Below are positions 24,656-53,694 of a stretch of DNA of 64,000 nt, in pieces. The stretch is from a virus. A program made the position numbers and the translations under genes. The notes under the pieces were generated by a model. It had not been told where the DNA came from, searched no databases, and saw only the letters and a list, made by a program, of their open reading frames with translations. How positions within the stretch are numbered: the first letter of the stretch is position 1; each line of letters opens with the position of its first letter. Where the stretch lies: the IMG/VR virus record IMGVR_UViG_3300042894_005670; one strand, given 5' to 3'.

Positions 24656-26845
24656 TTATGATGAGCCAAAAAACTTATTCATCAAAGCTTTTTGTTTTTT
24701 AGGTTTTGCCCCAAGTACAGGACTAATATTAGCCACCTTATCAGTGCCACTTAAGTATTTTGGGTTACGCTTGTCCTCTTTAGTATAACGTGGGTCTTTA
24801 GGGTCATACTCAGTACCAAATGCACTCTTAACTTGTGACGAATTGAATATGATATAAGACATATCTATATAGTCAGCTTGTTTTTGCAAATACTGATGCG
24901 CTTCTTGTTCAGCTTCTTCAGGTGTATCGCCTTCACCAATAGGTAAAGTAGGCATAACATTATCAGGTAAATATGCTACGTATTTTGATCCTTCTTTTTT
25001 AATCGTAAAATTAATGCGCTCATCAGGTCGCAATGTTCGCTTACCTTCATTAGTATTACGATATTGTATACCATCATATCCCGCATCAAACAATGAACGT
25101 GCTAATTCAGCATAGATTGTTGCTTTACAGTCATCCCAATCCATATCACGATCCCTACGAATTGCTTCAAGTTCGTTATATTCTTTTTGGTTAATAATCT
25201 TTTTCTTAAATAAAAAATTCATAACTTGACGTAAATGCTCTTCATCAGGACCAAATATGTCAGGCATAGTAAAAGGGTTTGTAATCTTTAAAAATACAGG
25301 AATTACACGTGCTCCACTATATTTGGCAAACTCATTAGCTGCTTCACGATTGCCAAAATGTATACCAAAATCACGATATAAATTTTTAAACGTTGAAAAA
25401 TCATTAGATGTACCATGATAAACAATCATAGGAGCACCATTACTATCAACTACTTTACTATTGCCAAACCATGCTCTTAAATTTTCCTCACGACCTTCTA
25501 CTAATTCTTTTAAAAAACTCATGGACTCTTTGTTGATATTAGGATTAGTTGGGTCAAATGTACCATCATTGTAAACGGATTTGATTTGCTCAGGGCGTAA
25601 TGCTATGTACCACGTTTTGGTTCTGCCTTTTATAACGAAGCCATCATTACCGTTTTCTGTAGCCTTTTTAAGAAGATTACGCACTTGGACGTATCCCTTA
25701 CTAGAATTAGACATTGACACCCATTTGTCCACGGATATAGAAAGCGGATTTTTAATAGATAAGAAAACGGGGATGATGTTGGCACCTTCTTGTTGAGCAT
25801 ACCCGCCAGCATCCGAGGCTGACGTTGAGAAAAAGATGCCTAGATAATCAGTTGCATTTGGCACACTGCTGCCTTTTGGCGCAGACTTGTCAAACGCTGC
25901 AAAGTTTCTGAGCGTACCGTGATACACCACTAACGGATCGCCTCTTTCATCAACCACCTTACTATTACCAAACCACTTATTAAAATTATTTTTTCTATCA
26001 TTACTATCTTCTTTAGTAATGTCAGGTTCATATTTACCAAATGTACCTACATTATATATAGACTTGATTTGATACTGTTCAAATGGACGATAAGTTAAAA
26101 TAATCGGTGTGCCCTCAGCACCAAGTTCTAACTCTTTTCCATCACGTGGTTCATATTTTTGGGAACCTGCTTCAAAAACATCTTTTAAAATGACACCATC
26201 ATATCCCATACCTTGTAGGTAACTTACAATATCTTCACTATCTGCAATAGTATATGTATCTATAACCGTATTGTCTAGTGCATCCTCAATAGAACTAATA
26301 TCGTCTGCTTCACCCCATGTGTCAATTTGATCTGAAAGGTCACGAAATCCTTTTATTCTAAAACCATCATCGTCATAAGCATTGATTGAAAATCTTGCGC
26401 CTGTTTTGTATATAATTTCATCTAAATCATATATCATATAGGACACATCTCTCCAACCTAATTTTTTACGTCCACCATCAGGTACATTTAGATCACTAGG
26501 CACCGTATTAATAAAATCTATTAATGATATTGTTTCGTTATAACGGGTAAGATCTAATGGTTTAACAATTCGTAAATACGCTGCGATTACAGTAGAACCA
26601 CTACCATATTGTCTTGTGTCTAAATGTCTAGAGTATACACTAGCTGCTGCAGGGTCATTAGTAAAAGATGGTACTGCACGACCTTGAGTTAATTTAAATT
26701 CTGTGGCAGCAGGTCGCTTACGTGTACCACGATATACAACAAGTGGGTTGCCATTACTATCAACCACTTTACTATTACCAAACCAACTACGAAATGCTTT
26801 TGTCTCTCTAGCTTTTTGGTATTCTAATAATTGTCCAATTTTCAT
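24656..26845 (-). CDS. Three tandem ART-PolyVal-like ADP-ribosyltransferase domains
   Basis: WFGNSKVVD..G.P..VY(H/R)GT...L.I..P...G.DG...Q(I/V)KS repeated three times. Confidence 0.8.
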   Translation of the reverse strand: MKIGQLLEYQKARETKAFRSWFGNSKVVDSNGNPLVVYRGTRKRPAATEFKLTQGRAVPSFTNDPAAASVYSRHLDTRQYGSGSTVIAAYLRIVKPLDLTRYNETISLIDFINTVPSDLNVPDGGRKKLGWRDVSYMIYDLDEIIYKTGARFSINAYDDDGFRIKGFRDLSDQIDTWGEADDISSIEDALDNTVIDTYTIADSEDIVSYLQGMGYDGVILKDVFEAGSQKYEPRDGKELELGAEGTPIILTYRPFEQYQIKSIYNVGTFGKYEPDITKEDSNDRKNNFNKWFGNSKVVDERGDPLVVYHGTLRNFAAFDKSAPKGSSVPNATDYLGIFFSTSASDAGGYAQQEGANIIPVFLSIKNPLSISVDKWVSMSNSSKGYVQVRNLLKKATENGNDGFVIKGRTKTWYIALRPEQIKSVYNDGTFDPTNPNINKESMSFLKELVEGREENLRAWFGNSKVVDSNGAPMIVYHGTSNDFSTFKNLYRDFGIHFGNREAANEFAKYSGARVIPVFLKITNPFTMPDIFGPDEEHLRQVMNFLFKKKIINQKEYNELEAIRRDRDMDWDDCKATIYAELARSLFDAGYDGIQYRNTNEGKRTLRPDERINFTIKKEGSKYVAYLPDNVMPTLPIGEGDTPEEAEQEAHQYLQKQADYIDMSYIIFNSSQVKSAFGTEYDPKDPRYTKEDKRNPKYLSGTDKVANISPVLGAKPKKQKALMNKFFGSS

Positions 26846-27282
26846 CCACGGTCTTTTTTCAATATGCTACGAAGCATCCATGAATGTTTTGCGTGACTAT
26901 CAATACGTCCTGCTATAAAATCAGCAATACCTTGCTCATCTTCTGCTTCACATTGATGGAATGTTTCTTTTAATAATACAATAATCTTTTGATTATCTTC
27001 GTACAATTCTGCCATCATTAACTCAGCACGTGGTATTTGTTGTTGCTCATCAATAATACTTAACTCTTGATACCTCGTCATGGATCCTGGTGCATATGAG
27101 TCTAACTGTCGAATTATTTCAGCTAGTTGATCAATACTGCCATATACTTCATTATACAAATCACCTAAAAATGCATGATATTGTGGAAAGTTTGGGCCTT
27201 CAATGTTCCAATGAAACCCTGCTGCCTTTATATAAAAAGCAAATGATGTTCCTAACACTTGCTTTAACTTATCTTTTAACAT
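26842..27282 (-). CDS. dps: Dps ferritin-like protein
   Basis: FHWNIEGPNFPQYH, D.LAE.IR, H.KH.WMLRS. Confidence 0.9.
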   Translation of the reverse strand: MLKDKLKQVLGTSFAFYIKAAGFHWNIEGPNFPQYHAFLGDLYNEVYGSIDQLAEIIRQLDSYAPGSMTRYQELSIIDEQQQIPRAELMMAELYEDNQKIIVLLKETFHQCEAEDEQGIADFIAGRIDSHAKHSWMLRSILKKDRG

Positions 27283-29728
27283 TCTTTTTACCTTCTAGCA
27301 TATTCTTTTGTGCTTCGTGACCTTCCATATACTCTGCTACATCTTTTATTAGTTCATCAGCACGTGTAATGTGGTCGGAGACCCATCCTGGCAAGCCTTG
27401 TCCTTCACTTCTACCTTTAATTATCTTAGCAAGTGACATTGAACTTTTTACGGTAGATAATAAACTGTTTACTGCCATTGATACTTCATGGTCAGGTTCC
27501 ATATGCTTAGCTTTAACTACATCACCACGCATACGCATTTTACCAGGCATCACTATGAGGTCTTGTTCACTTAAATCAGCTTCCTTCAATGTGTTAGGTA
27601 TAGCACCCGTATTGTTTAAGAAAAACTGATCTGTTACACCTGCTTTAATTTTTAAATCTCGCACTTGCTCTCTATACTCGTTAATTTCTTCCGCAATAGC
27701 ACGACCTAATATTTGACCAATTTGTTCAGGTGTTGCAGGTACATCAGGTCCTGTACCACCAAATTTTGTATTTACTAACCTAGGGAAGTAATTTCTAACA
27801 ACACTAGCTAAACGATTAACTGTTTCACTCGTTAAAGCTTTGTATTGTTGTATATAATTATCATATGAAATATTGTTAGCTAATGCTTTACCACCTGCGG
27901 CTATCGCTGCACCTGCCGCTGCAGCTTTACCTAAACTTCCTAAAAATCCTCTACGTGCAGGATCAGCTTCATTGATACTTTCTTCATCAGAAAATTTTGC
28001 ATCACGTAATGCATCTTCAAAAATTTCATCTAATCCATAAATTGCACTTTCTAATTCATGCTTGGCTTCATAAACACGGCTATTATGATAATTAAAATCA
28101 TCCATGTCTAATGCATAAGCTTTTACTAAATTTTCAATTTCTACCATAATTTCATTTACGGTATTATCGTATGAAATTCCTTTAGTAATTTTTCTAGCTT
28201 GCATTAAGGCACGTTCCAAATCATCTGCACGACCTTCGTTAATGCTTTCGTTCTTAGATTTATTACCCCAATTCTTTGCACCTGCTTTACGACATTTAAC
28301 TAATGCACCACTAGCATATGCACTAGGCCAAATTTTGTAACGACTTTTTACCTTATGGTAGCATGCATCTTTTTTACCTTCAGTAAATAATGCTTCACTG
28401 ACCATTTCACCATTACATTGTGGGCAAATACCCTCTTTGACATAATACTCAAGACTTTCATTCTTAGTCTTGTTGCTTACCATATCAGCCGCACCTTGAC
28501 GTTGTGGGTTTGGATCTTCACGGCGTTTTTTACGTACTGCTGCTGCAATAGCTTTTTTACCACCACTAGCACGTAATGATGCTGCTTTTTCTTTACTTAG
28601 GCATTTTGGTTTACCTTCACCTGCTTTACGTTCTCCACACTTACCAATACGCTCACCTTTAGTATTGTAGCGATCCCATCCACCGCCACCTGCACCACCT
28701 TCACCGCCTTTACCAAACCATGCACGTAAATCTTCGCTTAATTGTTCAGCAATTTCACTTTCACTGAATTCTTTGCCAACTAGTTTATCACCTGTAACAC
28801 CTTGAATTAGTGCCCATGCACGTTGAAATTCTTTTTCTTTAATTAATTGATTTAGGATTTGTTTTTGACGTGGATCTGCCATTTTAAAGAATTTAACCAT
28901 TTCCATTGCACCGATATTACCTTCATAACCTAGTTCCATCAATGCTTCTTCATTAGTATGAGATTGGTATTCATCATAATCCATATACATATCGGTATCA
29001 CGATCATAATACTTACCTTCTTTAGGATCGTAATAAACAATCTTACCTGATTTTAAACGAAATGGTCCTTCTAACCCTTGGTCTGACATATCTGTATAAC
29101 GTTCTTTATCAATTGGAGTTGATATTTTCCAACCTTCCGCCACACCTTGCGTCTCTGGACCATCCATCCAACTCTGCGTTAGTTTAATCATATCTAACGG
29201 AATGCGTTTTTTATCGTGAATTTCCATTGCCTTCAATCTTGCGGATTCTTGTGATGGGAACGGAATGGCATCAAACTTCTTATCTCTAAGAACTTTACCT
29301 TTAACTCTTACATACCAGTTTTCAGAGCCTTCCGCCACACCTTCTTTCCTAATACCAAGTGTACTCGCAGGATTACCTCCACCAAACATACTAGCAAATG
29401 CATCACTTGCTTGTTGTTTAGTATCTGCTTTTTGTTGTTTTTTTACTGATTTTTTACTCGTAACCTTTTTAAGCATTGTTTTAAACTTATCACCATCCGT
29501 TGTTGGATTAGTAGCTTCTGCCACCGTCTTTTTCTTTTTGCTACCTGCCCAATTACCCCACTCTGAAGCACTGCGCTCTACACTATTCATGTATTTTTTA
29601 CCACTATCTGCAGTCTCATCCGTTTTTTCACGTTTTACTGTTTCTTTGAATAATGGTGTGGCAACAGTAGCAACTGAACCTGCTGTCATTTCATTAATTT
29701 TATCTAAGGTTTTACGAATATCTGACAT
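27269..29728 (-). CDS. Modular virion-internal polyprotein (about 10 modules joined by hydrophobic-x-E motifs)
   Basis: INE|M, VAE|A, GVAE|G twice, LME|L, LSE|D, FTE|G, INE|G, INE|A, LKE|A separating unrelated segments; TAAATA upstream. Confidence 0.65.
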   Translation of the reverse strand: MSDIRKTLDKINEMTAGSVATVATPLFKETVKREKTDETADSGKKYMNSVERSASEWGNWAGSKKKKTVAEATNPTTDGDKFKTMLKKVTSKKSVKKQQKADTKQQASDAFASMFGGGNPASTLGIRKEGVAEGSENWYVRVKGKVLRDKKFDAIPFPSQESARLKAMEIHDKKRIPLDMIKLTQSWMDGPETQGVAEGWKISTPIDKERYTDMSDQGLEGPFRLKSGKIVYYDPKEGKYYDRDTDMYMDYDEYQSHTNEEALMELGYEGNIGAMEMVKFFKMADPRQKQILNQLIKEKEFQRAWALIQGVTGDKLVGKEFSESEIAEQLSEDLRAWFGKGGEGGAGGGGWDRYNTKGERIGKCGERKAGEGKPKCLSKEKAASLRASGGKKAIAAAVRKKRREDPNPQRQGAADMVSNKTKNESLEYYVKEGICPQCNGEMVSEALFTEGKKDACYHKVKSRYKIWPSAYASGALVKCRKAGAKNWGNKSKNESINEGRADDLERALMQARKITKGISYDNTVNEIMVEIENLVKAYALDMDDFNYHNSRVYEAKHELESAIYGLDEIFEDALRDAKFSDEESINEADPARRGFLGSLGKAAAAGAAIAAGGKALANNISYDNYIQQYKALTSETVNRLASVVRNYFPRLVNTKFGGTGPDVPATPEQIGQILGRAIAEEINEYREQVRDLKIKAGVTDQFFLNNTGAIPNTLKEADLSEQDLIVMPGKMRMRGDVVKAKHMEPDHEVSMAVNSLLSTVKSSMSLAKIIKGRSEGQGLPGWVSDHITRADELIKDVAEYMEGHEAQKNMLEGKKNVKR
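29133..29343. repeat. Exact 16-bp direct repeat CCTTCCGCCACACCTT (encodes GVAEG on the minus strand) flanking a 65-codon module
   Basis: 29133-29148 and 29328-29343, 195 nt apart. Confidence 0.9.
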
Positions 29729-29772
29729 GATGGAATTCCATAATATCTAGTATTTATTCGCTATGAATTAAT

Positions 29773-31182
29773 TTAGAACTTACCTGATGGCTTTGCTATG
29801 GGTGGTATACCACTACGTTTAATCTTACCTAAACCTAATTTTATAGCATTTTGTCTAATACTATCAGGTTTAATATCAACCGTTAATGCTGTTTTAAATC
29901 TTGGATCGTTTTTTTCTGCTTCACTAGGGATATATCCTGAAGCCTCATTAACATTAAATGTAGGATCAACTTTCTGACGTTTCATTCCTTTGGGTTGGTT
30001 AGGGTCAAGAGGATCAATATCCGTAGTAGATAAACCTGTTGCTTCTAAATCATCAATATATTTGTGTTCAGTATCTTCATCACCAAATGTTAATATGGTG
30101 CTAGGTGGTCCTTTACCAAAATCATGCTTACCTAAACCCTTAAGATTACTAATATGTTGTCCTAACTTATACCAATCATACACATCACTTACATCTACTC
30201 TAACCGTACCTTTTGGCATAGTGGGTTTAAACTCAGGACCAGGTGGGTTTCCGTTAGGGTCATAATCATCACGTAATTTACTATAATGTTTTCTATTTTT
30301 AGCCAAGTTTTTGTATGCCATTTCAGTAGCTAAACTACGCACACTAGTATTTGCCATTTCAAACTTTATACCACGCTTTAATTCACTTATGATATCATTT
30401 CTACTACAACCATGCATCTTTGCTAATTCACTAATAGTATATACAGGTTGTTCAACATTTTTACCAACCTTTTGCTCCATACTCATCTTTTCACTATGTA
30501 TTTCATTATAAGTATCACGCAGACGATGCAATAAACCACTAGTACGGAACGCTTTAAATGCTATATTTTCAGGAGAAAATTCACCTTGTGCATCTAAACC
30601 TGCTTTTCGATATTTTCTAATTGTATCTAGTAAGTCTTCAATCTTGTCTATATCTCTAGCTTGTAGTGCTAATTCAGCTACTTGTGCTAATTTTTCAAAC
30701 TTTAATTGACTTGCTGGTTCGTTGATATCAGCAACACGTTTGGTAGGAAATTTTATCCAACGATCTTTTAGTACACTGTACTCACCACGACTAACAACAG
30801 GATCAGCCGTATCTTGTACGTATAATTCTACTTCATAACCGCCTATAGTAATATCATGTTGCAAATTCCATATGATTTTTTTACTATGAAATAACTCACT
30901 ATAAATTTCATCATTTTTTAATTTCTTAATATCAACTAAAATATGTAAGTCAATATCACTATGTGGCGTATAGGTATATGAAGCATTGCTACCACTTAGT
31001 GTAATATCTTTAACATCTATATTACTTACACCAAGATGCTCCATAAAATCATCTGCAATTTCTAATAACCGATCACGCACAGCAGGAATCATGTGTTCAT
31101 CCCTAAAAATAGCAGGGTTTAACTGATCATGAAACTGTATAGCGTTTGATAATTTAAATTGTTCTAATTCTTTTAAATTCAT
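29773..31182 (-). CDS. Pol-beta-type nucleotidyltransferase fused to further modules (incl. degenerate DUF5661-like)
   Basis: LSGSNASYTYT..SDIDLH, VELYVQ; start MNLKEL after TAAATA. Confidence 0.75.
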   Translation of the reverse strand: MNLKELEQFKLSNAIQFHDQLNPAIFRDEHMIPAVRDRLLEIADDFMEHLGVSNIDVKDITLSGSNASYTYTPHSDIDLHILVDIKKLKNDEIYSELFHSKKIIWNLQHDITIGGYEVELYVQDTADPVVSRGEYSVLKDRWIKFPTKRVADINEPASQLKFEKLAQVAELALQARDIDKIEDLLDTIRKYRKAGLDAQGEFSPENIAFKAFRTSGLLHRLRDTYNEIHSEKMSMEQKVGKNVEQPVYTISELAKMHGCSRNDIISELKRGIKFEMANTSVRSLATEMAYKNLAKNRKHYSKLRDDYDPNGNPPGPEFKPTMPKGTVRVDVSDVYDWYKLGQHISNLKGLGKHDFGKGPPSTILTFGDEDTEHKYIDDLEATGLSTTDIDPLDPNQPKGMKRQKVDPTFNVNEASGYIPSEAEKNDPRFKTALTVDIKPDSIRQNAIKLGLGKIKRSGIPPIAKPSGKF

Positions 31183-31195
31183 AGTTGTATTTAGC

Positions 31196-31229
31196 AAAAA
31201 AACCGTGATAGAATTTCTCCTATCACGGT
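31196..31229 (-). terminator. Intrinsic terminator
   Basis: ACCGTGATAG/CTATCACGGT stem with T7 on the minus strand. Confidence 0.85.
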
Positions 31230-32999: not shown

Positions 33000-33683
33000 T
33001 TATGCTACTTCAGGAGGTTTTTGTATTGAGTATTCCTTTTTAATACATTCATGAAAAGTCATATAAAACAATGATTGCATATGCTCATCGTCATAATCAA
33101 AAAATAAATCTCCACCAATCCATCGACCATTTTTATTATTTGCATCCCAATGCATATAAAAATTAAAATTAGGAGATGGGAAAAAATGTTTTTTATACTT
33201 TGTAAAAAAATCACGTAATTCAATTAATTCGGTATGAGAATACACCCTTGACTTTAAATAGATACGAAAATTATGCTTTGGGTTTTTATGATATATAATT
33301 TCTTTAGGTCTTGAAAAATTTACAAGTACTTCTTCAACAGTGTTAGGTTGACCTAAAATTTTAGCTAAATCTTCTATAATATCATAGCGTGTTGAATATA
33401 CAGTAATACTATTAACATGTTTTAATGTTTTAATATAATCATCATTTGCTGATTTCCATATAAGAAATTTCTTAATTTCAATTAAGTTTTTAACATAAGC
33501 TTCACGAAGATTAGAACGAAGTAATTCGCTTTGTATTATTTCTAAATCATAATTTCTATGGATACCAATTTGCTTAAGGTCAAAACAAACTTTATATTTG
33601 TACTTGTCATACCATAACCAATGTTGATTTACATTAGGTTGCAGTGTTGTATAGCTAAATCCTGATAATACCATCTGTTCCAA
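33000..33683 (-). CDS. Hypothetical protein
   Basis: 227-aa ORF. Confidence 0.6.
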   Translation of the reverse strand: MEQMVLSGFSYTTLQPNVNQHWLWYDKYKYKVCFDLKQIGIHRNYDLEIIQSELLRSNLREAYVKNLIEIKKFLIWKSANDDYIKTLKHVNSITVYSTRYDIIEDLAKILGQPNTVEEVLVNFSRPKEIIYHKNPKHNFRIYLKSRVYSHTELIELRDFFTKYKKHFFPSPNFNFYMHWDANNKNGRWIGGDLFFDYDDEHMQSLFYMTFHECIKKEYSIQKPPEVA

Positions 33684-35931
33684 TTACCTCATCCTTATCA
33701 ATTGTTTTTTCTGCTGTAAAATTAATTTCATCTCCGTTTAGTATAACGTGAACATTAGAATCTTTTAATTTTTCAAATAAAATCTTTTTACTTAACGGTA
33801 CTCTGATAAGTTCATCAATCTTACGAGCAAGTGGACGTGCACCCATTTTATCGTCATAACCAACTTTAGCTAAGTGCTCAACTGCTTGCTCACTAATCGT
33901 TAAATTAATCTTGTGCTGTTTAAGTAATTGTGCTTTTAACTCATTAACAAATTTAATAACAATTTTCTTAATGGCTAACATGTCTAACTTACTAAACTTA
34001 CATACTAAATCAATACGATTACGCAGTTCAGGTTTGAAAAACTCTTTAAATGCTCGGTCATCTTCACCTACTTTTTGTGTTGACCCAAAACCAATGTTTG
34101 ATTTTTCACTATCTCTAGCACCTAAATTACTAGTCATAATAATGATTGTGTTTTTAGCATCTACCGTTTTACCATTAGTGCTAGATATTCTACCCTCATC
34201 CAATAATTGTAAGAATAAGTTATACACATCAGGGTGTGCTTTTTCAACCTCATCAAACAATAATATAGCGTATGGGTTTTTACTTAGATCATTGATAATT
34301 TTTCCACCACCAAGATTACCTTCACCATAGCCGACATAGCCTGGGGGCGCACCAATCAAAGCAGCTACGCTATGTTTTTCTTGATATTCACTCATATCAT
34401 AACGTAGCAATGGCATGCTTAAATGTTCGCTTAATAATCGAGCAGTTTCAGTCTTACCGCTGCCTGTTGGTCCTAAGAATAAGAAACTTGCCATAGGTTT
34501 CTTTTCATTAGAAATACCCGCAAAGCTAACATATATTCTATCTAAAATTTTCTCTAATGTAGCATCTTGCCCATAGAGTTTTTGTTTAATATTTTGATCT
34601 AAGTTAGTCATTTTTTCTGATGAATCATTAGTAAGTTTGTCCGCAGAAACGTTACACATTCTAGTGACTTGTTCTTTAATACTATTTTCATCAATAATTG
34701 CACCAACATTGTTTGCAGCACGTTGTTTAGCACATGCTGCATCGAGTAAATCAATGGACTTATCAGGATTTTTTCTATCATGAATATATCTTGCGCTCAT
34801 AGTGACTGCCTCAGTAATAGCATTAGGCATAATTTTTACACCATGAAATGACTCAAGACGTTCACTTAATCCTGTCAAAATGTCAATAGTAGTTGCATTT
34901 GTTGGCTCATCAATAGAAACACGGTAAAATCGACGCATTAAAGCACGATCTTTTTCAAATGATTCGTAGTATTCTTCCCACGTGGTACTAGCAATTACCT
35001 TCAAGTTACCTTTTGTAATTGCAGGTTTAATCATATTGGCAAAGTCTACACTGCCACCACTACCATTTCCACTACCACGCATAGTGTGTGCTTCATCTAT
35101 GAATAAGATAGCTTTAGGTTTGGTTGCTAATGCTTCTAAAACGTGTTTAACTTTTTCCTCAAAATCACCACGATACTTACTACCTGCAAGTAGTGATCCA
35201 ATTTCTAATGAATATACTTCATGGTCAAACAAAAATGGTGGTACATTTTTGTCAAGAATTTTTTGTGCTAAACCTTCAGCAAGGACGGTTTTTCCAACGC
35301 CTGGGTCGCCAACAAGTAATACATTAGATTTGAAACGTTTAGCTAATACATTGACAATATCATTAACTTCACTTTCACGCCCAATCAATGGCTCAATTTT
35401 ATTACGTTTGGCTAACTCAGTTAAACTAATCGTAAACTCATCTAATACTTCATTAGCTTGTTGCTCAGTCATTTTTCCACTCTTACTACTTTTGTGTGCT
35501 TTATTCCAATAAGCAATAAATTCATTCCGTGTTACGCCCCATTTCAATAAGAAATAATGTGCATGGCTGTTAGTTTCCTGTAAAATTGAAATATATATGT
35601 CTATTAGTTCAATTTGTCTGCGTCCTGTGAATAATACTTGTGTTACTGCACGATTAAAAACACGCTCAAGTGAATGAGTTTTCTTTGGTGCTACAGGAGT
35701 ACCATCTTCATTTGGAGACACTTTTAAATTATTGACTGAATCTAAATATTCATCAACTTCTTGAATAAGTTGTACTGTATCGACACCAAATTCATCTAGA
35801 TGTTCCCTAAATGATTCAAAGGTAATCAAACTTAACAAAGCATGTTCTAATGTTACATAACCATGATATCTGCTTTTTGCAATCTCAATGGCATGCTCAA
35901 TTAATTTTTCAATTTCAGGGTTGTTTATCAT
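33655..35931 (-). CDS. clpA: ClpA-type Hsp100 ATPase
   Basis: Clp N domain, GDPGVGKT, GSKYRGDFE, FIDEAH, GPTGSGKT, GAPPGYVGY, FDEVEKAH, IGF loop, GARPL. Confidence 0.93.
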   Translation of the reverse strand: MINNPEIEKLIEHAIEIAKSRYHGYVTLEHALLSLITFESFREHLDEFGVDTVQLIQEVDEYLDSVNNLKVSPNEDGTPVAPKKTHSLERVFNRAVTQVLFTGRRQIELIDIYISILQETNSHAHYFLLKWGVTRNEFIAYWNKAHKSSKSGKMTEQQANEVLDEFTISLTELAKRNKIEPLIGRESEVNDIVNVLAKRFKSNVLLVGDPGVGKTVLAEGLAQKILDKNVPPFLFDHEVYSLEIGSLLAGSKYRGDFEEKVKHVLEALATKPKAILFIDEAHTMRGSGNGSGGSVDFANMIKPAITKGNLKVIASTTWEEYYESFEKDRALMRRFYRVSIDEPTNATTIDILTGLSERLESFHGVKIMPNAITEAVTMSARYIHDRKNPDKSIDLLDAACAKQRAANNVGAIIDENSIKEQVTRMCNVSADKLTNDSSEKMTNLDQNIKQKLYGQDATLEKILDRIYVSFAGISNEKKPMASFLFLGPTGSGKTETARLLSEHLSMPLLRYDMSEYQEKHSVAALIGAPPGYVGYGEGNLGGGKIINDLSKNPYAILLFDEVEKAHPDVYNLFLQLLDEGRISSTNGKTVDAKNTIIIMTSNLGARDSEKSNIGFGSTQKVGEDDRAFKEFFKPELRNRIDLVCKFSKLDMLAIKKIVIKFVNELKAQLLKQHKINLTISEQAVEHLAKVGYDDKMGARPLARKIDELIRVPLSKKILFEKLKDSNVHVILNGDEINFTAEKTIDKDEVIGTDGIIRI

Positions 35932-36361
35932 ATTGTTTTTCCAATTTTCTATCCATCATAGTAATACCATCTAAATGATCCACTTCATGTTGTATAACAC
36001 GTGCTTCTAACCCACTAAATGTTTCAACAAACATGTTACCATTTGCGTCATTGTAAGATAGCACAATAGTTTCAGGTCTGTCAAGTTCCACTGATTCATT
36101 AGGATAGCTTAAACATCCTTCAAGATAAGGTGTACTACCTTGTGCATCTTGAATCATAGGATTAAAAAAAGCTTTTTCATTATTATCTACTGCCATAACA
36201 AAAACCCTACTGCGTAATCCAACTTGATTAGCAGCAAGTCCAATACCACCACTTTCATGCATAAATTTTAACAACTGCTTAGCTAATAATTCGTTTTGTA
36301 TGGGGTATTTGAAATCAACAGGTTTAGTTTTTTGATATAATGTTCTTTTAGTTAGCTTCAT
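35915..36361 (-). CDS. def: Peptide deformylase
   Basis: [24 protein letters not shown]. Confidence 0.95.
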
Positions 36362-37152
36362 TTCGTATTTAATACACGTTCTTGCTCTAAAACTCTGATT
36401 AAATTGTCACTTATTTCTTCAGGCATAATGGGTCTAAGTATAACATACTGATCACCCAATCCAAAATTATTGGATAAACCATGACCACCTAACCTTAATG
36501 TTGCATTAGGTTTAGCTCTTGGTTGTATGCTGATTTCTAGTTCTTTACCATATATCGTTGGTACGATAATTAACGAACCTATGACTAAGTCAAAAATACT
36601 TATATCATAATTAAAATATAAATCTAACCCACGCCTTTCAAACAAAGGATGCCTATGTTGTCTATAAGTAACTTGAAGTGGTCCATCAGGCATTAACCCT
36701 TCATACTTAACAACACCACCATCGTCAATACCTTTTGGTATTTTCACTTCAAATAATTTCATACCTTGTGGTGTATTAATTTGCAAATTATGTTTATCAC
36801 CTGTGGCTATTTGTTCTAAAGTGACAAATACTGTAGCGGTATATACTCGCTGCTGCGGTGGTGCATGTGGATGCCTAAAGAATTGCCCAAAAATATCATG
36901 GATATTTTGTCCGAAATGAAACTCAAAACCACCTTGTTGTGGATTAAACCCATTAAATTGTGGTTGAGGATTGTCATAAACAGCACGTTTTTGTGGGTCA
37001 CTTAACGTGTCGTATGCTGCTTGTATAGTTTGAAAACGTGCAGTATCACCACCTCTGTCAGGATGGTGTTGACTTGCTAACTTACGATATGCTTTTTTAA
37101 TTTCATCAGGAGTAGCATTTTTTGCTACTCCTAACGTCTGATAATGATTCAT
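36358..37152 (-). CDS. dnaJ: DnaJ-class co-chaperone (type II, no Zn finger)
   Basis: J domain with HPD, G/F-rich linker, DnaJ C-terminal domain. Confidence 0.9.
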
Positions 37153-42923: not shown

Positions 42924-44078
42924 TTATACCTTTAAAAATTTATTAATATCAAATCCTAATCCATTGATATTTTGTTTCCATGAATAAGGTCCCCATGAAC
43001 CATAATCAGTAGATAAGTTACCACCTGTATCATCGATGTTGGCAATAACTTTTTCTTTGAAAAAATTATCTACAGATAAATTTTTTATTGCTTGTTTTCC
43101 TTTAAGTTTAGCCATTTTCCAAAACTCAGTCTTAAAAATTGACCCATGATAATAATGAAAACCTATCATATTTTCAATAGACTGAAGTTCTTTAGTATAG
43201 AAAAAATTAATATCAAAAATTCTTGCATCAAAAGCTAAGTGGTCAAAAGTTAAACGATTAATAACGTCCATCGTACTAATTGAGGTTGCTTCTAATGGTT
43301 CTAAAAAGAATGAAGCATTACCATTATAACATACTCTTTCTGTAAAATTTTCTTTACGATAATAATTATTAAAAGAAAAAGAATTAGTCATGTCACTTGG
43401 TGTTAGGTTGTAATCCTCAAAAACGCTTTCAACATCTTTTTTAATTTCATCTAATGAATTTAATTGATTATTATATAAGTATCCTACTGAACATCTATTT
43501 TGCAAAGGTATAACAAAAACCCAACCATATTTTCTTGCAACTGTTCCCGTATAAAAAAACTTTGGTCTATCCCACAAGCACTGCGTTACGTGTACTGAAT
43601 TTACAGGAATGCGATCAGACAATGTAAAATCTTCATAAGTTTGTGGTTTGCCTGTACAATCCATAATATAATCAGCATCAATATCATCATAAGAAATAAT
43701 ATTTGACTGATGTATAGTAAGTTTTTTATTTTTTTGTGCTTCCCGTAAAATAAATTCTTGTAACTTTAAAGCGTTGAAGTGAAATGAAATGTCAGGGGGT
43801 GGGAAAAAATGAGTATACTCTTTTCCTTTCGACCAATTTTGTTTTTTAATGCCATGCTTATAAGTACCATCGATTTCATTAGCTAGCATGTCGTAATTAA
43901 AACGACAAAATTTAAAAAGTAATCGAGGTAAATTTAAAGTACTACCTTCACCCACTGCTTGTGTTGGTATAGATTCATCAAAATACCAATCTATCTCATA
44001 ATCTGAATAACTTATAAAATGTGCTACTGCTAAAGCACCTGCCGTTCCACGACCAACTATAGCTAATTTTTTACTCAC
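42924..44078 (-). CDS. Tryptophan halogenase-like flavoprotein, copy 2
   Basis: VGRGTAG, VGEGST, YKHGI...NW, DCTG, GWVFVIP, FLEPLEAT. Confidence 0.8.
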   Translation of the reverse strand: MSKKLAIVGRGTAGALAVAHFISYSDYEIDWYFDESIPTQAVGEGSTLNLPRLLFKFCRFNYDMLANEIDGTYKHGIKKQNWSKGKEYTHFFPPPDISFHFNALKLQEFILREAQKNKKLTIHQSNIISYDDIDADYIMDCTGKPQTYEDFTLSDRIPVNSVHVTQCLWDRPKFFYTGTVARKYGWVFVIPLQNRCSVGYLYNNQLNSLDEIKKDVESVFEDYNLTPSDMTNSFSFNNYYRKENFTERVCYNGNASFFLEPLEATSISTMDVINRLTFDHLAFDARIFDINFFYTKELQSIENMIGFHYYHGSIFKTEFWKMAKLKGKQAIKNLSVDNFFKEKVIANIDDTGGNLSTDYGSWGPYSWKQNINGLGFDINKFLKV

Positions 44079-45246
44079 TTTGTAAATCCTTTGGATTAAT
44101 ACCCAAATTTATCAAATTTTGCCACCATGAATAGGCATCCCATGATCCAAAATTGTTTTTATTTAATGTAATATGTTTTGGTATTTTATTTTCTTCATAC
44201 TTTATAACATCTTTTAAACATGCTTGAAACTTAGGGTGATTTTTAAGCATGTTTAAAGATGATTGACCTTTTTCTTTTGCCATTTTCCAAAATTTAGTAT
44301 TAAACTTAGAACCTTGACTGTAATGCATTGAAATCATTAACTCAATTTGAGTAATATTATTAAAATAGTGAAAGTTACATTCATCTAAACTCATATTATC
44401 GTACAGATGATCGTAAACCAAACGTGAACATTGATTAACAAAAACAAAAGAAGTTGCCTCTAAAGGTTCTAAAAAGAATGATGCATTACCATTGTATGCA
44501 ACTCTTTTAGTAAAATTTTCTTTCTTAAAATAATTTTGAAATTGAAAAGCATTTGTTTTGTCACTTGGTGTTAATTTTAATTCTTTAAAAACATTGGTAA
44601 CATCTTTTTTAACTTCATCTAAAGAACTTGTTTGTGGGTTATACAAATAACCTACTGAACAACGTTTTTGTAATGGTATACCAAAAACCCATCCATGTTT
44701 TCTAGCCATTGTCACCGTATATTCAAATTCAGGTTTATCCCAATAACATTGAGTAACATATACTGCGTTTACAGGAATAAATTTACATATGTGAAAATCT
44801 TCATAATTTTCAGGTCTACCTGAGCAATCAATAATGTAATCAGCATCAATGTCATCATGCGAATTTACATGTTGATCATATATCTTTAATCTAGGATTAT
44901 CTTTAATTTTATCATGAATAAGTTTTTGCAAAGCTATTGCATCAAAATGCATTGCTATATGGGGTGGGTAAAACCAATGATTAAAATCATGATTGTGTTT
45001 ACCCCAATTGTACTTTCTAATAGCGTACTTATAATTTCCACCTATATTTTTAAGGTCATTGTAAGTAAAATCAATAGTTTGTCTTAAATTTCCAGGTAAT
45101 ACAAGCGTACTGCCTTCTCCTACAGCTTGTGTAGGTATATTGGGGTCAAAATACCAATCAATTTCATCATTTGTAAAATTTAAAAAGTGAGCAGCATTTA
45201 CAGCACCTGCAGTGCCACGCCCAACAATCGCAAGCTTTTTTTTCAT
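44071..45246 (-). CDS. Tryptophan halogenase-like flavoprotein, copy 1
   Basis: VGRGTAG, VGEGST, YKYAI...NW, DCSG, GWVFGIP, FLEPLEAT. Confidence 0.8.
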   Translation of the reverse strand: MKKKLAIVGRGTAGAVNAAHFLNFTNDEIDWYFDPNIPTQAVGEGSTLVLPGNLRQTIDFTYNDLKNIGGNYKYAIRKYNWGKHNHDFNHWFYPPHIAMHFDAIALQKLIHDKIKDNPRLKIYDQHVNSHDDIDADYIIDCSGRPENYEDFHICKFIPVNAVYVTQCYWDKPEFEYTVTMARKHGWVFGIPLQKRCSVGYLYNPQTSSLDEVKKDVTNVFKELKLTPSDKTNAFQFQNYFKKENFTKRVAYNGNASFFLEPLEATSFVFVNQCSRLVYDHLYDNMSLDECNFHYFNNITQIELMISMHYSQGSKFNTKFWKMAKEKGQSSLNMLKNHPKFQACLKDVIKYEENKIPKHITLNKNNFGSWDAYSWWQNLINLGINPKDLQSE

Positions 45247-47150: not shown

Positions 47151-47381
47151 TTAGGATATGTCAATTTTTGGGGCAGTGTTGCCACGCTTTGCCCATAACT
47201 CATTTTGCTGTCGAGTATATTCTGCTCGATATGATTCTAAAACCATTTGCATTTGGCGAACCATGTCATGTTTACCCATTTTAAATGCCCATTGCATCCT
47301 ATTGTTTAAAGTGGATATTTTTTCACCTAGTTCTTCTAGGTTCGAGCCTGACAAATCTGAAATAAATGGATGATTAAACAT
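47151..47381 (-). CDS. Hypothetical protein
   Basis: Start moved to MFNHPF (TGATG coupling). Confidence 0.6.
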   Translation of the reverse strand: MFNHPFISDLSGSNLEELGEKISTLNNRMQWAFKMGKHDMVRQMQMVLESYRAEYTRQQNELWAKRGNTAPKIDIS

Positions 47382-48133
47382 CACCAAGCAGATAATGTAA
47401 CACGCTTCCAAATGGCTGTAGCACCATCATAGTTTGCAGTACATACATAAAAATAATTGGCATCTGACGCAACAGTACCTGCTTTATCACCTAATGCACC
47501 AACATTACTTGCAGGTACGGTAGTAATTAACTGTGTTGTTTTTCTTGGTCTATCAATTGGCATCACCGTAATATTAGTACCGCAATCAACCGTGGAAAAT
47601 TCATGATGCACTTTTGCAACATTTGCAGGCATGGTAAAGTTACCACCTGCTACACCATTACCCGCATAATTTTCAATGGTCAGCATACCATCAGTTACGT
47701 TTGATGGTATTGTTATTACCGCATTTGCATTAGCGACATTAAATATTGTTTGTACATTTTGCTGCGTACCTGCAGGTGCCCATGCAGCAAAAGCTAAAGT
47801 AACGTTGCCTGTAATTGTACCATATTGCACATCACCGTTAGTTACATTTACCGTTACAGTACCACTTAAATTATTACCTAAGTTGTAAGTAGTGGCACGA
47901 AATCCTTGAACTAAAGCATTACTGATTAAAGTATTTGCCATGTCATTGTTTAAAGTAGTGCCTGTCAATGCACTTTTTACAACAACCTTATTTTGCAAAT
48001 CTGTAATTTCAGTTGATGCAGTATCTAAACCACTTTTTATAGCGGTAAAGTTAGTACGAAATCCCTGTGAACTGTTGTTGATGCCTGGGATTGGGTAGGC
48101 TGTATCAATTTGTCCTGTGTCAATTGCGCTCAT
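47381..48133 (-). CDS. Virion structural protein (baseplate/tail region)
   Basis: YPIPGINNSSQGFRTNF N-terminus; YFYVC...WKR C-terminal fibre motif. Confidence 0.65.
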   Translation of the reverse strand: MSAIDTGQIDTAYPIPGINNSSQGFRTNFTAIKSGLDTASTEITDLQNKVVVKSALTGTTLNNDMANTLISNALVQGFRATTYNLGNNLSGTVTVNVTNGDVQYGTITGNVTLAFAAWAPAGTQQNVQTIFNVANANAVITIPSNVTDGMLTIENYAGNGVAGGNFTMPANVAKVHHEFSTVDCGTNITVMPIDRPRKTTQLITTVPASNVGALGDKAGTVASDANYFYVCTANYDGATAIWKRVTLSAW

Positions 48134-48141
48134 AGTAATAT

Positions 48142-51100
48142 TTATCCGCTCTGTAAAGTGGTTGGAAGAATTGTGCGTTGTACAAAATGTATGTATTTGT
48201 CTTTAGAATTATTCGTTACAGCAGGTTGCCCACTTGGTAACGTGCTTACCCATTCAGTACCATTCCAATCAAAGGTAAGTGACTTATCTACCTCAAAACG
48301 ATCCACTGTAAATTGTACTGCATTAAATTTAATACCTTCAGCAGTATTTTGCCAAGCAATAATATTGTTTTTAATCGCTGTACTATACCCAGGTTTTGTA
48401 TAACAAATTACCCAAGCAGGAGTAAATCCTAAGGTACTGCCATCAGGTTGTTGACTTGTCATCCACAATGGTAAAATACTATCGTTATTAACATATCCTA
48501 ACGCATCCTCCAATTGTTGACGCATATTAACTAAACTATTTGGGTATAATATCTGTGCATACCCAGGCGTTAGCGCAGTAAAATATGTTGGCGTATAAAA
48601 TGTCAACGTATCACCCGCATAATATGTTCCACTAGGTGCTTGGTTTAAGGTTATTGTATAAGTGTTTGGTGTAATAGAAGTAATGTATGGCACAGCTCCT
48701 GTATTGCCCAAAATCATATTCAATGACAGTCCTGTCAAAGAATTAACAACATAAGTTGTAGCATTTACTACACTACTAATTGTTACAGCAACAGGACTTA
48801 CTGAATAGACATAACTTGTTTGTATAGTGGCTGATGAGTCATACCATGGTCCTAAATTTAAATCAATTCTTCTAGGCCATCCTATTTCTTTTGGTATACT
48901 AACACCTTGATTATTGATTAAATTGTCTATAATTTCACTATAGACCACTTCATATATTATATTATTACTATTATCTCTTGCCACAGCGGTTTTTAATTCA
49001 CCCAAAGTAATATCACGCCAATAATGATTGATGTTTATTGCGTTAATATACTCTTGTACAGTGCTAGCAGGTATACCATAGGCATGATTGTAAATAATAT
49101 TCTTTGCTCTTCCAAAATATGGATCTTCTAAACGATATACTGCTGCATCAGGAATTATAAGGTTAGGGTTGCCAGGTGTACTATTTCTTATTAAATCATT
49201 TATTTTTGCACGTGCAGATAATGCAGGATAACATTGCATATAAACAGTTTCCCATGGTTCAGGAAATTCTTGTATTGCAGTAAAGTAAAATTGTTTTGTT
49301 TCATTTATTTCTTCTTGACCTACAATATATGCTTGCACAGTAAAGTAAAAAGCACGTGTGCTATTTGGATATACACCATCTTGATCATATGTTGCTTCAA
49401 ACGCTAATCTACCACTTATTTCACCTGATGGTAACATGGTTAAGTTAGGTGGCAATTCTCCTAATGTTGGACTAAACCATTCAATAACAAAATTTGCGTT
49501 TTGATCGTAATATGTTAAATCATAATTAAATTCATCATACTCATCCGTAATAGCTTCGGGATTATAAATTAATATATAACGACTATAAATTATCGTACCA
49601 TACTCACCCGCAGCAACAAAATTATACTCAACACGTTGTGCACTACCTCCACTTATGTACGCACTATAGGCTGAAGTATTAAATCCTGATGTTAATCCAC
49701 TGTCAGTATATAATTCAAAAGTATTAATAGAAATAACTTTAATGTAAAATTGTTGATCATTAATTGCTGTCATACCTAACACATCAACAATACAAATTCT
49801 ATCACCACTTGAATACTGATGTGCAGAATCAGTGGTTACTAAAGCAGTTGCAGCTTGTGTTATATTTGTAATTAATATACCTACATTAGGTCTAGTTAAA
49901 CCTCGTGTAATTGAGTATAAATTATTGCCTGTTTTACCTGACAAATAACTCCATGAATTGTTTTCACCATTTTCACTATATGCAGTAAATCCATCATCAC
50001 CAACAACAAAAAATTGTCCACTATCATAGACTACATCGTTCAAACGTTCATTCGTGAATGCTTTTTGTAAAGTCCAACTTGCGCCATTATCACTTTCAAG
50101 TACAAGCCCATTATCACCCACTGCAATCCACTTAGTACCATTTGTTGCAATAGATTTAAGTGTACCCAATCTTGGTGTAATAGTACCACCACTTGTATAA
50201 GCAGTATATGTTGTTGAATTTGTAGCTGTAGTTAATGTTACAGTATTATATAAAGCAAATTTGTTTACAGCATAACCTGTTGCCTTTACATAATACGTGT
50301 TACCATTTAATTCTGTCATACCACCTACACCTGTTATGACAATACGTTGTCCGTCACTCATATTATGTACACCACTAACAGTAACAACTGCTATTGCTGC
50401 TTGTGTAACATTAGTTATAGAAATGGTATTAATAGTTGCTGCTGTCCATGTTCCACCAATAGGAAAACCCACTGCATTAGAGTAATATATTGCAGCAGTT
50501 GAATCTGATTTGTTACCTACTACATGATATGTATATGGTGTAGTAGTACCTGTTCTAATAATCTTGTTAAACACATAATCAACATCCGTTGAGGTAGATC
50601 CTGTTACTGTAATAGTTCCTAAAGTCCAAACAAATCCTGATTGACTACCTGTAATAATGGTTGCATTGTCACCTACTGCTATAAATCTTTCACCACCTGT
50701 ACGATTATCAAACATCACACTGTATAAACTGCTATTACCCGCAACTGATGCAGGACTCCAATTAATGCCATTATTTGAACCATAAATTGTTGGTTGTAAT
50801 GATTGGGTATAACCTACTGTAACTAAAGTGCCTGTTGAAGTTGTTGGATAGTAACCTGATGCAATTGATGTTAAGTTATCAAAAGTAAACTGTGGCAAAT
50901 ATTGCCATGTACGTCCATAATTAGTGCTATATGCAATTTCACCTAAATCTCCAACGGCATAGTACGATGGTACTGATGTTGTCGTTACAGCACCTACAAC
51001 AGATGATGTTATTGAATTTAGATTTCTTCTATTTTCATTAACAATACGATAGTTTACAGTTTCACCTGTCAAATTAGTATTAGCTTTAATATTAAAGTTA

Positions 51101-53077: not shown

Positions 53078-53694
53078 TTATTTTCCAAAAGTTTTAAAGC
53101 TTTTTTATAATGATCTTGGCGGTCAGATAATCCAATAGTGCCGCCATTAATTCTTTTTGTTAATGTAATAAAATCATCTTTATCACACCATTGATTTAAT
53201 TTATTACAATCCCAAAACCATCCTGCACTAGCAACTGCCCCTGCATGAGTTTCCATATAAGCTACCACTTCATCAACTTCTAAACCAAGTGATTTTGCAA
53301 ATTTTGTATAATTTACTTTGCCTGTTAATTGAATCAATCCACGTCCACAAAATTTCCACCCATCACCACTTGCTTCATCACCATTTCCCATACGACTTGC
53401 ATAAACACGATTGGCAATCTTTTCAGGTTTACGTTCATATTGTTTTGCTAATGATTCATTAGGAAAATATTTTTTAAAAATCTTTACTAAACCTTGTGCG
53501 CTATAGTTTAGGTTTTCTTTTAAAAATTGATAACCACCACTTTCATGACCTGTTTGAGCTAAAAACCCTGCGATACGCTTTGGTGTATTAATTTCATAAT
53601 GTTCGCATGTTTGATTTAATGGATCTAAAAAAGGTTCTAATTTTGCTGCAGGAGTTTTATCACATACTGCACGTAAAATCTCTAATGTTATCAT
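53074..53694 (-). CDS. GH19 chitinase-like endolysin
   Basis: FLAQTGHESGG, ENLNYS, GRGLIQLTGK.NY, SAGWFW, TKRINGG. Confidence 0.9.
   Translation of the reverse strand: MITLEILRAVCDKTPAAKLEPFLDPLNQTCEHYEINTPKRIAGFLAQTGHESGGYQFLKENLNYSAQGLVKIFKKYFPNESLAKQYERKPEKIANRVYASRMGNGDEASGDGWKFCGRGLIQLTGKVNYTKFAKSLGLEVDEVVAYMETHAGAVASAGWFWDCNKLNQWCDKDDFITLTKRINGGTIGLSDRQDHYKKALKLLENK

Follow-up and report, generated by a model that had tools for sequence, protein, structure and literature searches.

Cassette exchange at aliphatic-x-Glu linkers in an 819-residue modular protein of a jumbo phage, a candidate head-packaged polyprotein

Introduction

In phage T4, the capsid targeting sequence comprises 10 residues, with processing through its residues 8 and 10, and 7 residues are removed from Alt; the prohead protease acts within proheads, where core proteins have many L/I-x-E sites at which they are cut into fragments that are then expelled (PMC9026906). 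Inner-body and ejection proteins of phages phiKZ, 201phi2-1 and SPN3US have multiple (S/A)-x-E sites (PMC10052503). A further class, the polyvalent proteins, joins many unrelated domains in one chain with extensive mosaicism, and its members are predicted to be embedded in the virion and injected (Iyer et al. 2017, PMC5512222). Here we compare with these systems a protein of 819 amino acids (aa) encoded by a single open reading frame (ORF) in the viral record IMGVR_UViG_3300042894_005670. The stretch of this record that was analysed, 64,000 nucleotides (nt) long, is referred to throughout as the window. An earlier note, made from the letters of the window, had described the protein as a string of about ten unrelated mini-modules separated by protease-type sites, and had read it as a polyprotein that packages many peptides from one late gene.

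The 819-aa protein resembles IPI-III and Alt, internal proteins of T4, in its short leader ending in aliphatic-x-Glu and in the small basic products that it would give; an ADP-ribosyltransferase with a similar leader is encoded nearby, and genomes related to this phage have a T4-type head module. It is unlike them in that T4 devotes one gene with one site to each internal protein, whereas here about ten modules share one ORF with a candidate site between each. Moreover, IPI-III have no sequence similarity to these modules, and cleavage of the 819-aa protein is a proposal. Several post-Glu prohead-protease sites per chain, at which it is cut into several fragments, are also a feature of T4 gp22, gp67 and gp68 and of the phiKZ, 201phi2-1 and SPN3US proteins (PMC9026906; PMC10052503). 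In these proteins, however, the additional sites lie in discarded propeptides and each chain has one mature part, whereas every inter-site segment of the 819-aa protein is independently conserved and mobile; its P3 residue is aliphatic as in T4, not Ala/Ser as in the phiKZ type.

With polyvalent proteins it has in common many unrelated domains in one chain, mosaic across relatives, and an ART-PolyVal protein (ART, ADP-ribosyltransferase) is encoded by the next-but-one gene. The differences are that the modules are much smaller, that a separate protease would act at a uniform linker, and that neither hallmark polyvalent domains (MPTase, ART, ParB-like, ArdC-N and others) nor a peptidase of its own were detected in the 819-aa protein, which by domain content is not a member of the polyvalent set. 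What sets it apart from all systems compared is the presence in one ORF of about ten mobile mini-modules with a uniform linker, the commonest form of which is fixed at the DNA level.

Results

Cassette exchange among homologs

Translation of the window confirmed that the ORF is intact and stop-free over 819 codons. When split at the sites chosen in the earlier note, the protein falls into a leader of 13 residues and ten segments of 58-134 residues, with net charges ranging from -12 to +11 (Table 1). The modules had been called unrelated, and comparing them with each other indeed revealed no significant similarity. The peptides quoted in the earlier note (DLRAWF..GKC..KPKC, KKDACYHKVK..PSAYASGALVKCRK, YYDPKEGKYYD and DHEVSMA..LPGWV) are all present.

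Eleven close homologs, 80-97% identical to the query over the aligned parts, differ from it by entire blocks, and these differences fall exactly at GVAE/G, V[DE]E/S and [IL]NE/ (the slash marks the junction). Past ..GIRKEGVAE/, the window has a 65-residue cassette, module B, where homologs have unrelated cassettes, two or three of them, or none. In P0003, P0006, P0002 and P0013 unrelated cassettes take its place, in P0009 and P0010 it is missing, and after this variable slot all close homologs resume at ..V[ADEN]E/[GS]WKISTP. Residues 588-721 (module H) are missing en bloc in six homologs (P0007-P0015), leaving the junction ..LNE/QDLIVMPG. One of the boundaries named in the earlier note needs a small shift: the deletion places the C-terminal edge of module H at LSE721/Q (27566), to which LKE716/A is a tandem neighbor 5 residues upstream.

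In more distant proteins, in which 6-20% of the query can be aligned at 55-80% identity, the order of modules is changed. One of them has query residues 492-583, 410-501 and 289-434, in that order, and a second has residues 582-709, 417-499 and 320-420. Module I, C-terminal in the window, sits near the N-terminus in at least 14 other proteins. P0103 (1081 aa) consists of twelve segments of 53-160 residues, every one closing in QGVAE; it contains module A2 with GVAE on either side, and the same module is also present in P0082, P0108, P0111 and P0118. A profile of modules E and F together (E+F) collected 3,944 cluster representatives (50% identity), proteins of 102-1852 residues in which the modules may occupy any position; these clusters come from lake and ocean viromes and from cultured cyanophages. 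More than 4,899 longer and more than 6,432 shorter proteins have words in common with the query.

We regard the modular architecture and the exchange of cassettes as established. The search proposed in the earlier note found the modules elsewhere, in different orders and with the same boundaries; homologs that are colinear, with boundaries away from the Glu motifs, are not what we observed.

Module boundaries follow an aliphatic-x-Glu rule

Each of the ten junctions given in the earlier note lies no more than 1 nt from where the Glu codon of an [LIVMF]-x-E tripeptide ends: INE13 (29690), VAE71 (29516), VAE133 (29330), VAE198 (29135), LME265 (28934), LSE332 (28733), FTE450 (28379), INE498 (28235), INE587 (27968) and LKE716 (27581). 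They were picked from 26 such sites in the protein, or 3.2 per 100 aa. A ClpB-like neighbor is denser in the tripeptide (3.7 per 100 aa), so the site count alone is not above chance. Since unrelated neighbors equal it, we dropped motif density as evidence.

The positions of homology breakpoints are more telling. Breakpoints at residues 71, 133, 198, 332, 587 and 721 each lie exactly after an [LIVMF]-x-E site. A random position has a probability of ~0.03 of doing so, and six exact coincidences would therefore be expected with a probability of ~1e-9 by our own arithmetic. Segment ends in all-against-all BLAST comparisons gave merely a 2-3 fold enrichment near the sites because alignments continue through similar linkers. 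These counts were superseded by an anchor-based approach, in which conserved residues within a module served as anchors and distinct upstream contexts were counted. Against a background of 8.5% for Glu at P1 and 20.5% for [LIVMF] at P3, the two frequencies were 94% and 85% at the start of module E (n=65 contexts), 97% and 94% for module C (n=34), 88% and 88% for module H (n=8), and 100% and 100% for module I (n=15; P3 is L/I in 15/15). Module F begins two residues past such a site in 67 of 77 contexts. The result for module E was replicated with an independent sample of 136 representatives from the E+F profile search, clustered at 50% identity, where P1 is Glu in 83% and P3 is [LIVMF] in 81% of 122 contexts. 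In the distant proteins, only L/V/I at P3 and Glu at P1 are conserved upstream of modules, at 80-100% vs ~1.5% expected.

Positions P2 and P4-P9 vary upstream of module starts, and the P3/P1 rule is kept at linkers that are unlike in both residues and DNA, such as LSE/D, INE/A, VDE/A and LDE/N. The constraint therefore acts at the protein level.

The GVAEG linker is a DNA-level joint

The two GVAEG junctions of the window share one and the same coding 16-mer, AAGGTGTGGCGGAAGG. Its codons are rare ones: in the window, GTG accounts for 12% of Val codons and GCG for 7% of Ala codons. In IMG/VR, the word CARGGTGTGGCGGAAGG is present in at least 120 viral contigs, many of which have 2-4 in-frame copies (spacing a multiple of three). 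Among the matches listed, GGT GTG GCG GAA encodes 257 of 323 GVAE motifs, and the linker Val and Ala are encoded by GTG and GCG in 89% and 90% of cases, whereas the remainder of these ORFs uses the two codons at 20% and 7%. These codon statistics rest partly on loci picked by the DNA word itself and are inflated for that reason; with one seed copy per locus taken out, about two thirds of the linkers still match. Conservation does not extend past ~20 nt in 238 distinct linker contexts.

Population data point to the same word. In lake-metagenome contigs from two other studies, matching to the window ceases at 29131/29151 (runs X8 and X10; linker copy 2) and at 29321/29327 (linker copy 1), and one contig (run X18) joins 29137 to 29334, omitting module B between the repeats. 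Thus, the identical rare-codon word together with the cassette swaps and contig breaks located there make the GVAEG linker a DNA-level joint for cassette exchange. The earlier note had overlooked both this DNA-level conservation and the part of the linker in exchange. A single metatranscriptome run contained short pieces only, among them a 183-nt contig on module B, and from these we draw no claim about expression.

In having identical short DNA flanking unrelated in-frame cassettes, with exchange at the word and alternatives sharing one slot, the locus is comparable to integron cassettes and to the shuffling at promoter-early-stem-loop (PeSL) elements of T4-type phages. Unlike in those systems, the joint is located within an ORF, in frame, is ~16-20 nt long and coding, and no recombinase is implicated.

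A Tat-like start after an internal linker

Module H opens with ADPARRGFLG, followed by an Ala/Gly-rich stretch and ALA/N, an arrangement reminiscent of twin-arginine translocation (Tat) signals. Residues 587-618 matched TIGR02811 ('TAT target') with E=1.6e-5 and 25.1 bits (cut-off 48.45), and PF10518 and TIGR01409 did not report this start. In homologs, module H always directly follows [VI]-[DE]-E/A. In P0080, a different internal module has a Tat signal scoring over the Pfam and NCBIfam cut-offs, directly after LEE/. Module H starts at residue 588 of 819, far from the N-terminus, and its Tat-like signal would become N-terminal only after a cut at INE587/A. Since Tat signals work at N-termini, such a signal here would argue for cleavage before module H.

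Leaders, head genes and virion association

In 108 of 134 distinct N-termini of related proteins, an [LIVMF]xE tripeptide ends at residues 6-16, compared with 24% of random internal windows. Even stand-alone modules retain short leaders, for example MKFKISE/NLRAWF. The leader of the 819-aa protein, MSDIRKTLDKINE/, likewise fits a length of ~7-13 residues with L/I/V-x-E at its end. As far as sequence can tell, these leaders are laid out in the manner of the capsid targeting sequence of T4.

Two related genomes, G005 (300 kb, 81% complete) and G007 (338.5 kb, 97% complete), with 59-60% identity in the family-B DNA polymerase (PolB), possess a T4-type head module with portal, acidic core protein, S77 protease (92.8 bits), gp22-like scaffold and gp23 capsid protein. 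The gp22-like scaffold has 25 [LIVMF]-x-E sites, and the N-terminal extension of gp23 contains ALLE/G twice and HLAE/N once. GVAE-linked proteins are encoded in both genomes too, within a few kb of PolB, as in the window. The S77 (gp21-like) protease was found in G005 and G007 and in none of the 73.7-kb record to which the window belongs (estimated 21% complete), G001, G006 and G008; Peptidase_S77 and Gp23 searches of that record, G001, G006, G008 and G009 returned nothing.

Beside the S77 protease gene of G007 lies a gene (L129, 8927-9853, minus strand) for an acidic core-like protein of 308 aa. It starts with MNKYEQLIE/FIINE/, which we take to be close in format to a T4 internal-protein targeting sequence.

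Modules E and F also occur in proteins of the cyanomyovirus cluster T4-GC119 (DUF6321/DUF5872-type), encoded between g16 and g17. At 35-49% identity in these modules, the cluster likewise shows a string of basic Cys-containing mini-modules after hydrophobic-x-Glu; its proteins are shorter (170-460 aa), with neither the GVAEG linker nor modules A-D and G-I. So far they have been described just as hypothetical or structural. The cluster is among those detected in virions of S-SM1, at 13 peptide counts (PMC3037559 Table S8). A homolog in S-SCSM1 bears the name 'Virion protein', and virion protein names in that phage derive from mass spectrometry (PMC9602691).

Searches for module function

Pfam, NCBIfam and PHROGs provided no functional name for any module. 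The whole protein matched no Pfam family at E<=0.01, single modules giving sub-threshold matches only; for example, DUF5872 (PF19197) aligned to residues 458-490 of module F with 18.4 bits, under its gathering cut-off of 27.5. Among PHROGs, phrog_13298 matches residues 206-250 of module C, and PHROGs 727, 38880 and 3477 match module F (KKDACYHKVK..PSAYASGALVKCRK..WGNKSK). No RiPP family (RiPP, ribosomally synthesized and post-translationally modified peptide) matched the 819-aa protein.

An AlphaFold2 model of the whole protein based on the 11 close homologs is too poor to define domains (mean predicted local distance difference test, pLDDT, 37.6; predicted template modeling score, pTM, 0.22); at this low confidence it has no packing between modules. 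For modules E+F, with 40 sequences, pLDDT reached 66, and a Foldseek search of this model against PDB found no match. BFVD returned sequence relatives without known function, and ESM Atlas returned viral hypothetical clusters only. In the literature on GVAEG, DUF5872, DUF6321 and DUF5661 we found no published description of the cassette architecture.

Genomic setting and neighbors

The record containing the window, at 73.7 kb and 21% completeness, implies a genome of ~350 kb. The window has a G+C content of ~34%, and its minus strand holds nearly all genes. Its PolB is nearest to those of Sinorhizobium phage Phosso (50%) and Agrobacterium phage Atu_ph07 (46%), followed by Rak2-like giant myoviruses (~42%). 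On such sequence grounds the source phage is a T4-supergroup jumbo phage. The window sequence occurs in lake-water metagenomes of many studies, and megablast with 20 kb of it against cultured phages gave no match.

The 819-aa ORF and the two genes downstream of it (24656..27282) are likely co-transcribed. The late-promoter-like word AATAAATAC lies 29 nt 5' of the ATG of the 819-aa ORF, and the same word, NATAAATA, is also found directly 5' of tail-fibre-like ORFs at 53694-57686, 48142-52458 and 47381-48133.

Table 1. Features of the 819-aa ORF and adjacent genes (window positions)
Feature	Position	Strand	Remarks
Nucleotidyltransferase-fold gene	29773-31197	-	NTP_transf_2, residues 62-101; precedes the 819-aa ORF
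Late-promoter-like word AATAAATAC	29750..29758	-	29 nt 5' of ATG; T4-late-like
819-aa ORF	27269-29728	-	
N-terminal leader MSDIRKTLDKINE/, residues 1-13	29690..29728	-	Capsid-targeting-sequence-like, ends INE
Module A1, residues 14-71	29516..29689	-	C-terminal end VAE/A
Module A2, residues 72-133	29330..29515	-	..GGGNPA..LGIRKEGVAE/
Linker word AAGGTGTGGCGGAAGG, copy 1	29328..29343	-	16 nt, encodes (E)GVAEG, exact repeat
Module B, residues 134-198	29135..29329	-	Swappable cassette flanked by two identical linkers
Linker word AAGGTGTGGCGGAAGG, copy 2	29133..29148	-	16 nt, encodes (Q)GVAEG
Module C, residues 199-265	28934..29134	-	WKISTPIDKERY..YYDPKEGKYYD.., ends LME/
Module D, helical, residues 266-332	28733..28933	-	Ends LSE/
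Module E, basic, residues 333-432	28433..28732	-	DLRAWFGKG..GKC..KPKC.., net charge +11
CPxC knuckle (residues 433-450, ends FTE/) and basic module F, residues 433-498	28235..28432	-	Ends INE/
Module G, acidic helical, residues 499-587	27968..28234	-	Ends INE/A
Module H, residues 588-721	27566..27967	-	Tat-like start; tandem end sites LKE716/, LSE721/
Module I, C-terminal, residues 722-819	27272..27565	-	QDLIVMPG..DHEVSMA..LPGWV..
Dps/ferritin-like gene	26842-27282	-	PF00210, 82 bits; start overlaps 3' end of the 819-aa ORF
Triple ART-PolyVal ADP-ribosyltransferase gene, 729 aa	24656-26845	-	PF18760, 198 bits; overlaps Dps-like gene; leader MKIGQLLE/

Several other genes of the window, all on the minus strand, deserve mention. 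Each of the three domains of the ART-PolyVal protein opens with x-[FL]-[RN]-x-WFGNSKVVD, resembling the start of module E, [DN]LRxWFGKG, and the third domain is preceded by MSFLKELVE/G, which has the look of an internal leader. The nucleotidyltransferase-fold protein has ~235 additional C-terminal residues without a family match. The gene at 57789-60626 encodes an acidic protein of 945 aa with 34 [LIVMF]xE sites and a leader-like start, MDLRSIIAQISQLEE; a 48-residue module of this protein (residues 758-806, after VEE/S) is common to P0018 and P0093 of the polyprotein network. Judged from these sequence features, it is probably a further cassette polyprotein.

A chaperone/maturation cluster at 33655-37152 comprises a ClpB-like double AAA+ ATPase (758 aa), a peptide-deformylase-like ORF (GIGLAAN) and a J-domain protein. 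Two adjoining genes at 42924-45246 are tryptophan-halogenase-like (PF04820), a type often annotated in cyanophages. Finally, the 1438-aa product of 48142-52458, a gene with a late-like promoter word, matches the FCCH domain of ubiquitin-activating enzyme E1 twice (PF16190, 68 bits), which is unusual in a phage protein of structural appearance.

Discussion

What does this architecture serve? By analogy with T4, we consider it rather probable that the 819-aa protein is packaged into the head as a polyprotein that the prohead protease processes, with linkers that double as recombination joints. The precursor would resemble beads on a string, with a 13-residue leader similar to capsid targeting sequences and about ten unrelated modules separated by aliphatic-x-Glu linkers; the linkers that bound modules include GVAE/G twice, INE/ three times, LSE/ and VAE/. 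After late transcription of the gene, the leader would carry the precursor into the prohead core, where a T4-type (S77, gp21-like) prohead protease would cut past the Glu of exposed linkers. Cleavage would release small peptides in a fixed ratio, of which several are strongly basic. These peptides may remain with the DNA and be ejected into the next host alongside the neighboring Alt-like ADP-ribosyltransferase. The cut at INE587/A would expose the Tat-like signal as a new N-terminus. The same linkers would act as in-frame recombination joints at which cassettes are gained, lost and exchanged, the GVAEG form being fixed at the DNA level. Of the polyprotein proposal made in the earlier note, the string of about ten mini-modules bounded by Glu motifs stands as observed, and peptide release and packaging rest on analogy and context. 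What we infer extends from late expression and targeting through cleavage and packaging to ejection, and includes what the modules do.

A number of observations weigh against this proposal. The density of the tripeptide is ordinary, and about half of the 26 sites fall within predicted helices, so they would need protection. In principle, P3 and P1 could be the opening residues of each domain. The Tat match of module H is under the family cut-off. The gene sits amid replication and host-takeover genes, outside any head module, and the late-promoter word is not enriched across the window. The rare-codon conservation of GVAEG is not needed by a protease site and points to a role at the DNA level. 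Neither the 73.7-kb record nor G001, the relative closest to it, yielded protease, capsid or portal genes, and G006, estimated to be 99% complete, has no protease or capsid match; because the records searched are mostly fragments, these missing matches say nothing on absence. In the data that we could reach, neither a cleavage product nor a new N-terminus or virion peptide of the 819-aa protein was seen.

The strongest competitor, to which we assign a minor yet appreciable probability, is a multidomain protein of the polyvalent kind that stays uncleaved, whether in the virion or not, and whose linkers are flexible joints and recombination points. Some polyvalent proteins are delivered unprocessed (PMC5512222). 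The DNA-conserved GVAEG linker with its rare codons, the cassette swaps and population variants at that linker, and the lack of a detected protease in the 73.7-kb record would all be explained in this way. However, the P3/P1 rule is kept at linkers of unrelated DNA and variable P2, and it is also seen where N-terminal leaders end, a place at which recombination plays no part. Moreover, Tat-like signals placed straight after the sites make little sense in an uncut chain, and the AlphaFold model, at low confidence, has no inter-module packing.

It is unlikely that the chain is instead cleaved in the cytoplasm of the producing cell by a Glu-specific protease and not packaged, with one module exported by Tat. 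Such a scheme would fit the motif at the linkers and the way module H opens with a Tat-like signal, as it would the location of the gene outside head clusters, beside enzymes and chaperones. However, apart from the prohead protease no Glu-specific protease was found in the lineage, and that of T4 acts inside proheads (PMC9026906). Proteins with homologous modules are found in cyanophage virions, and the leaders resemble capsid targeting sequences.

Somewhat less likely still is a sacrificial core or scaffold filler, cut like T4 gp22, gp67 and gp68, with most fragments leaving the prohead and the modules serving assembly, space or charge. Here the parallels are the T4 core proteins, cleaved at many L/I-x-E sites with expulsion of the fragments (PMC9026906), and the related gp22-like scaffold with its 25 sites. 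Yet the related genomes already own a gp22-like scaffold and an acidic core protein beside the protease, and the basic modules (+11, +9) should remain with the DNA. The modules are diverse, each is conserved across thousands of proteins and they shuffle freely, which fits effectors better than filler. A RiPP-like multi-core precursor, whose peptides would be modified, for example by the two tryptophan-halogenase-like enzymes, and then released, is very improbable: despite the two Trp_halogenase genes and conserved Trp residues in several modules, the modules are 50-130 aa long, are unrelated to one another and have predicted secondary structure, the halogenase genes lie at a distance of 13 kb, and the window's protein is matched by no RiPP family.

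Returning to the head-packaged polyprotein, a bolder extension of it can be offered, tentatively and with more doubt than belief. The GVAEG word of ~16-20 nt may be an intragenic, in-frame exchange site, analogous to an integron attachment site, that shuffles a common pool of thousands of injected mini-effectors in aquatic T4-type giant phages. Its translation would be the prohead-protease site at which these effectors are later separated and which, not before the next host is reached, unmasks cryptic N-terminal signals, for example for Tat export.

If the linkers are cut, a single gene would allow compact delivery of a cocktail of many small proteins in fixed ratio, and cassette swaps would re-assort this cocktail with the reading frame and the processing sites intact. 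Virion proteomes already recorded for cyanophages can be re-read with the directly testable rule of aliphatic-x-Glu followed by a module. Protein packaging could also be engineered with the uniform linker and leader, a use to which the T4 capsid targeting sequence is already put. If true, the proposal would for the first time place a very large amount of viral dark matter in a functional setting, with the 3,944 E+F clusters being internal, ejected head proteins.

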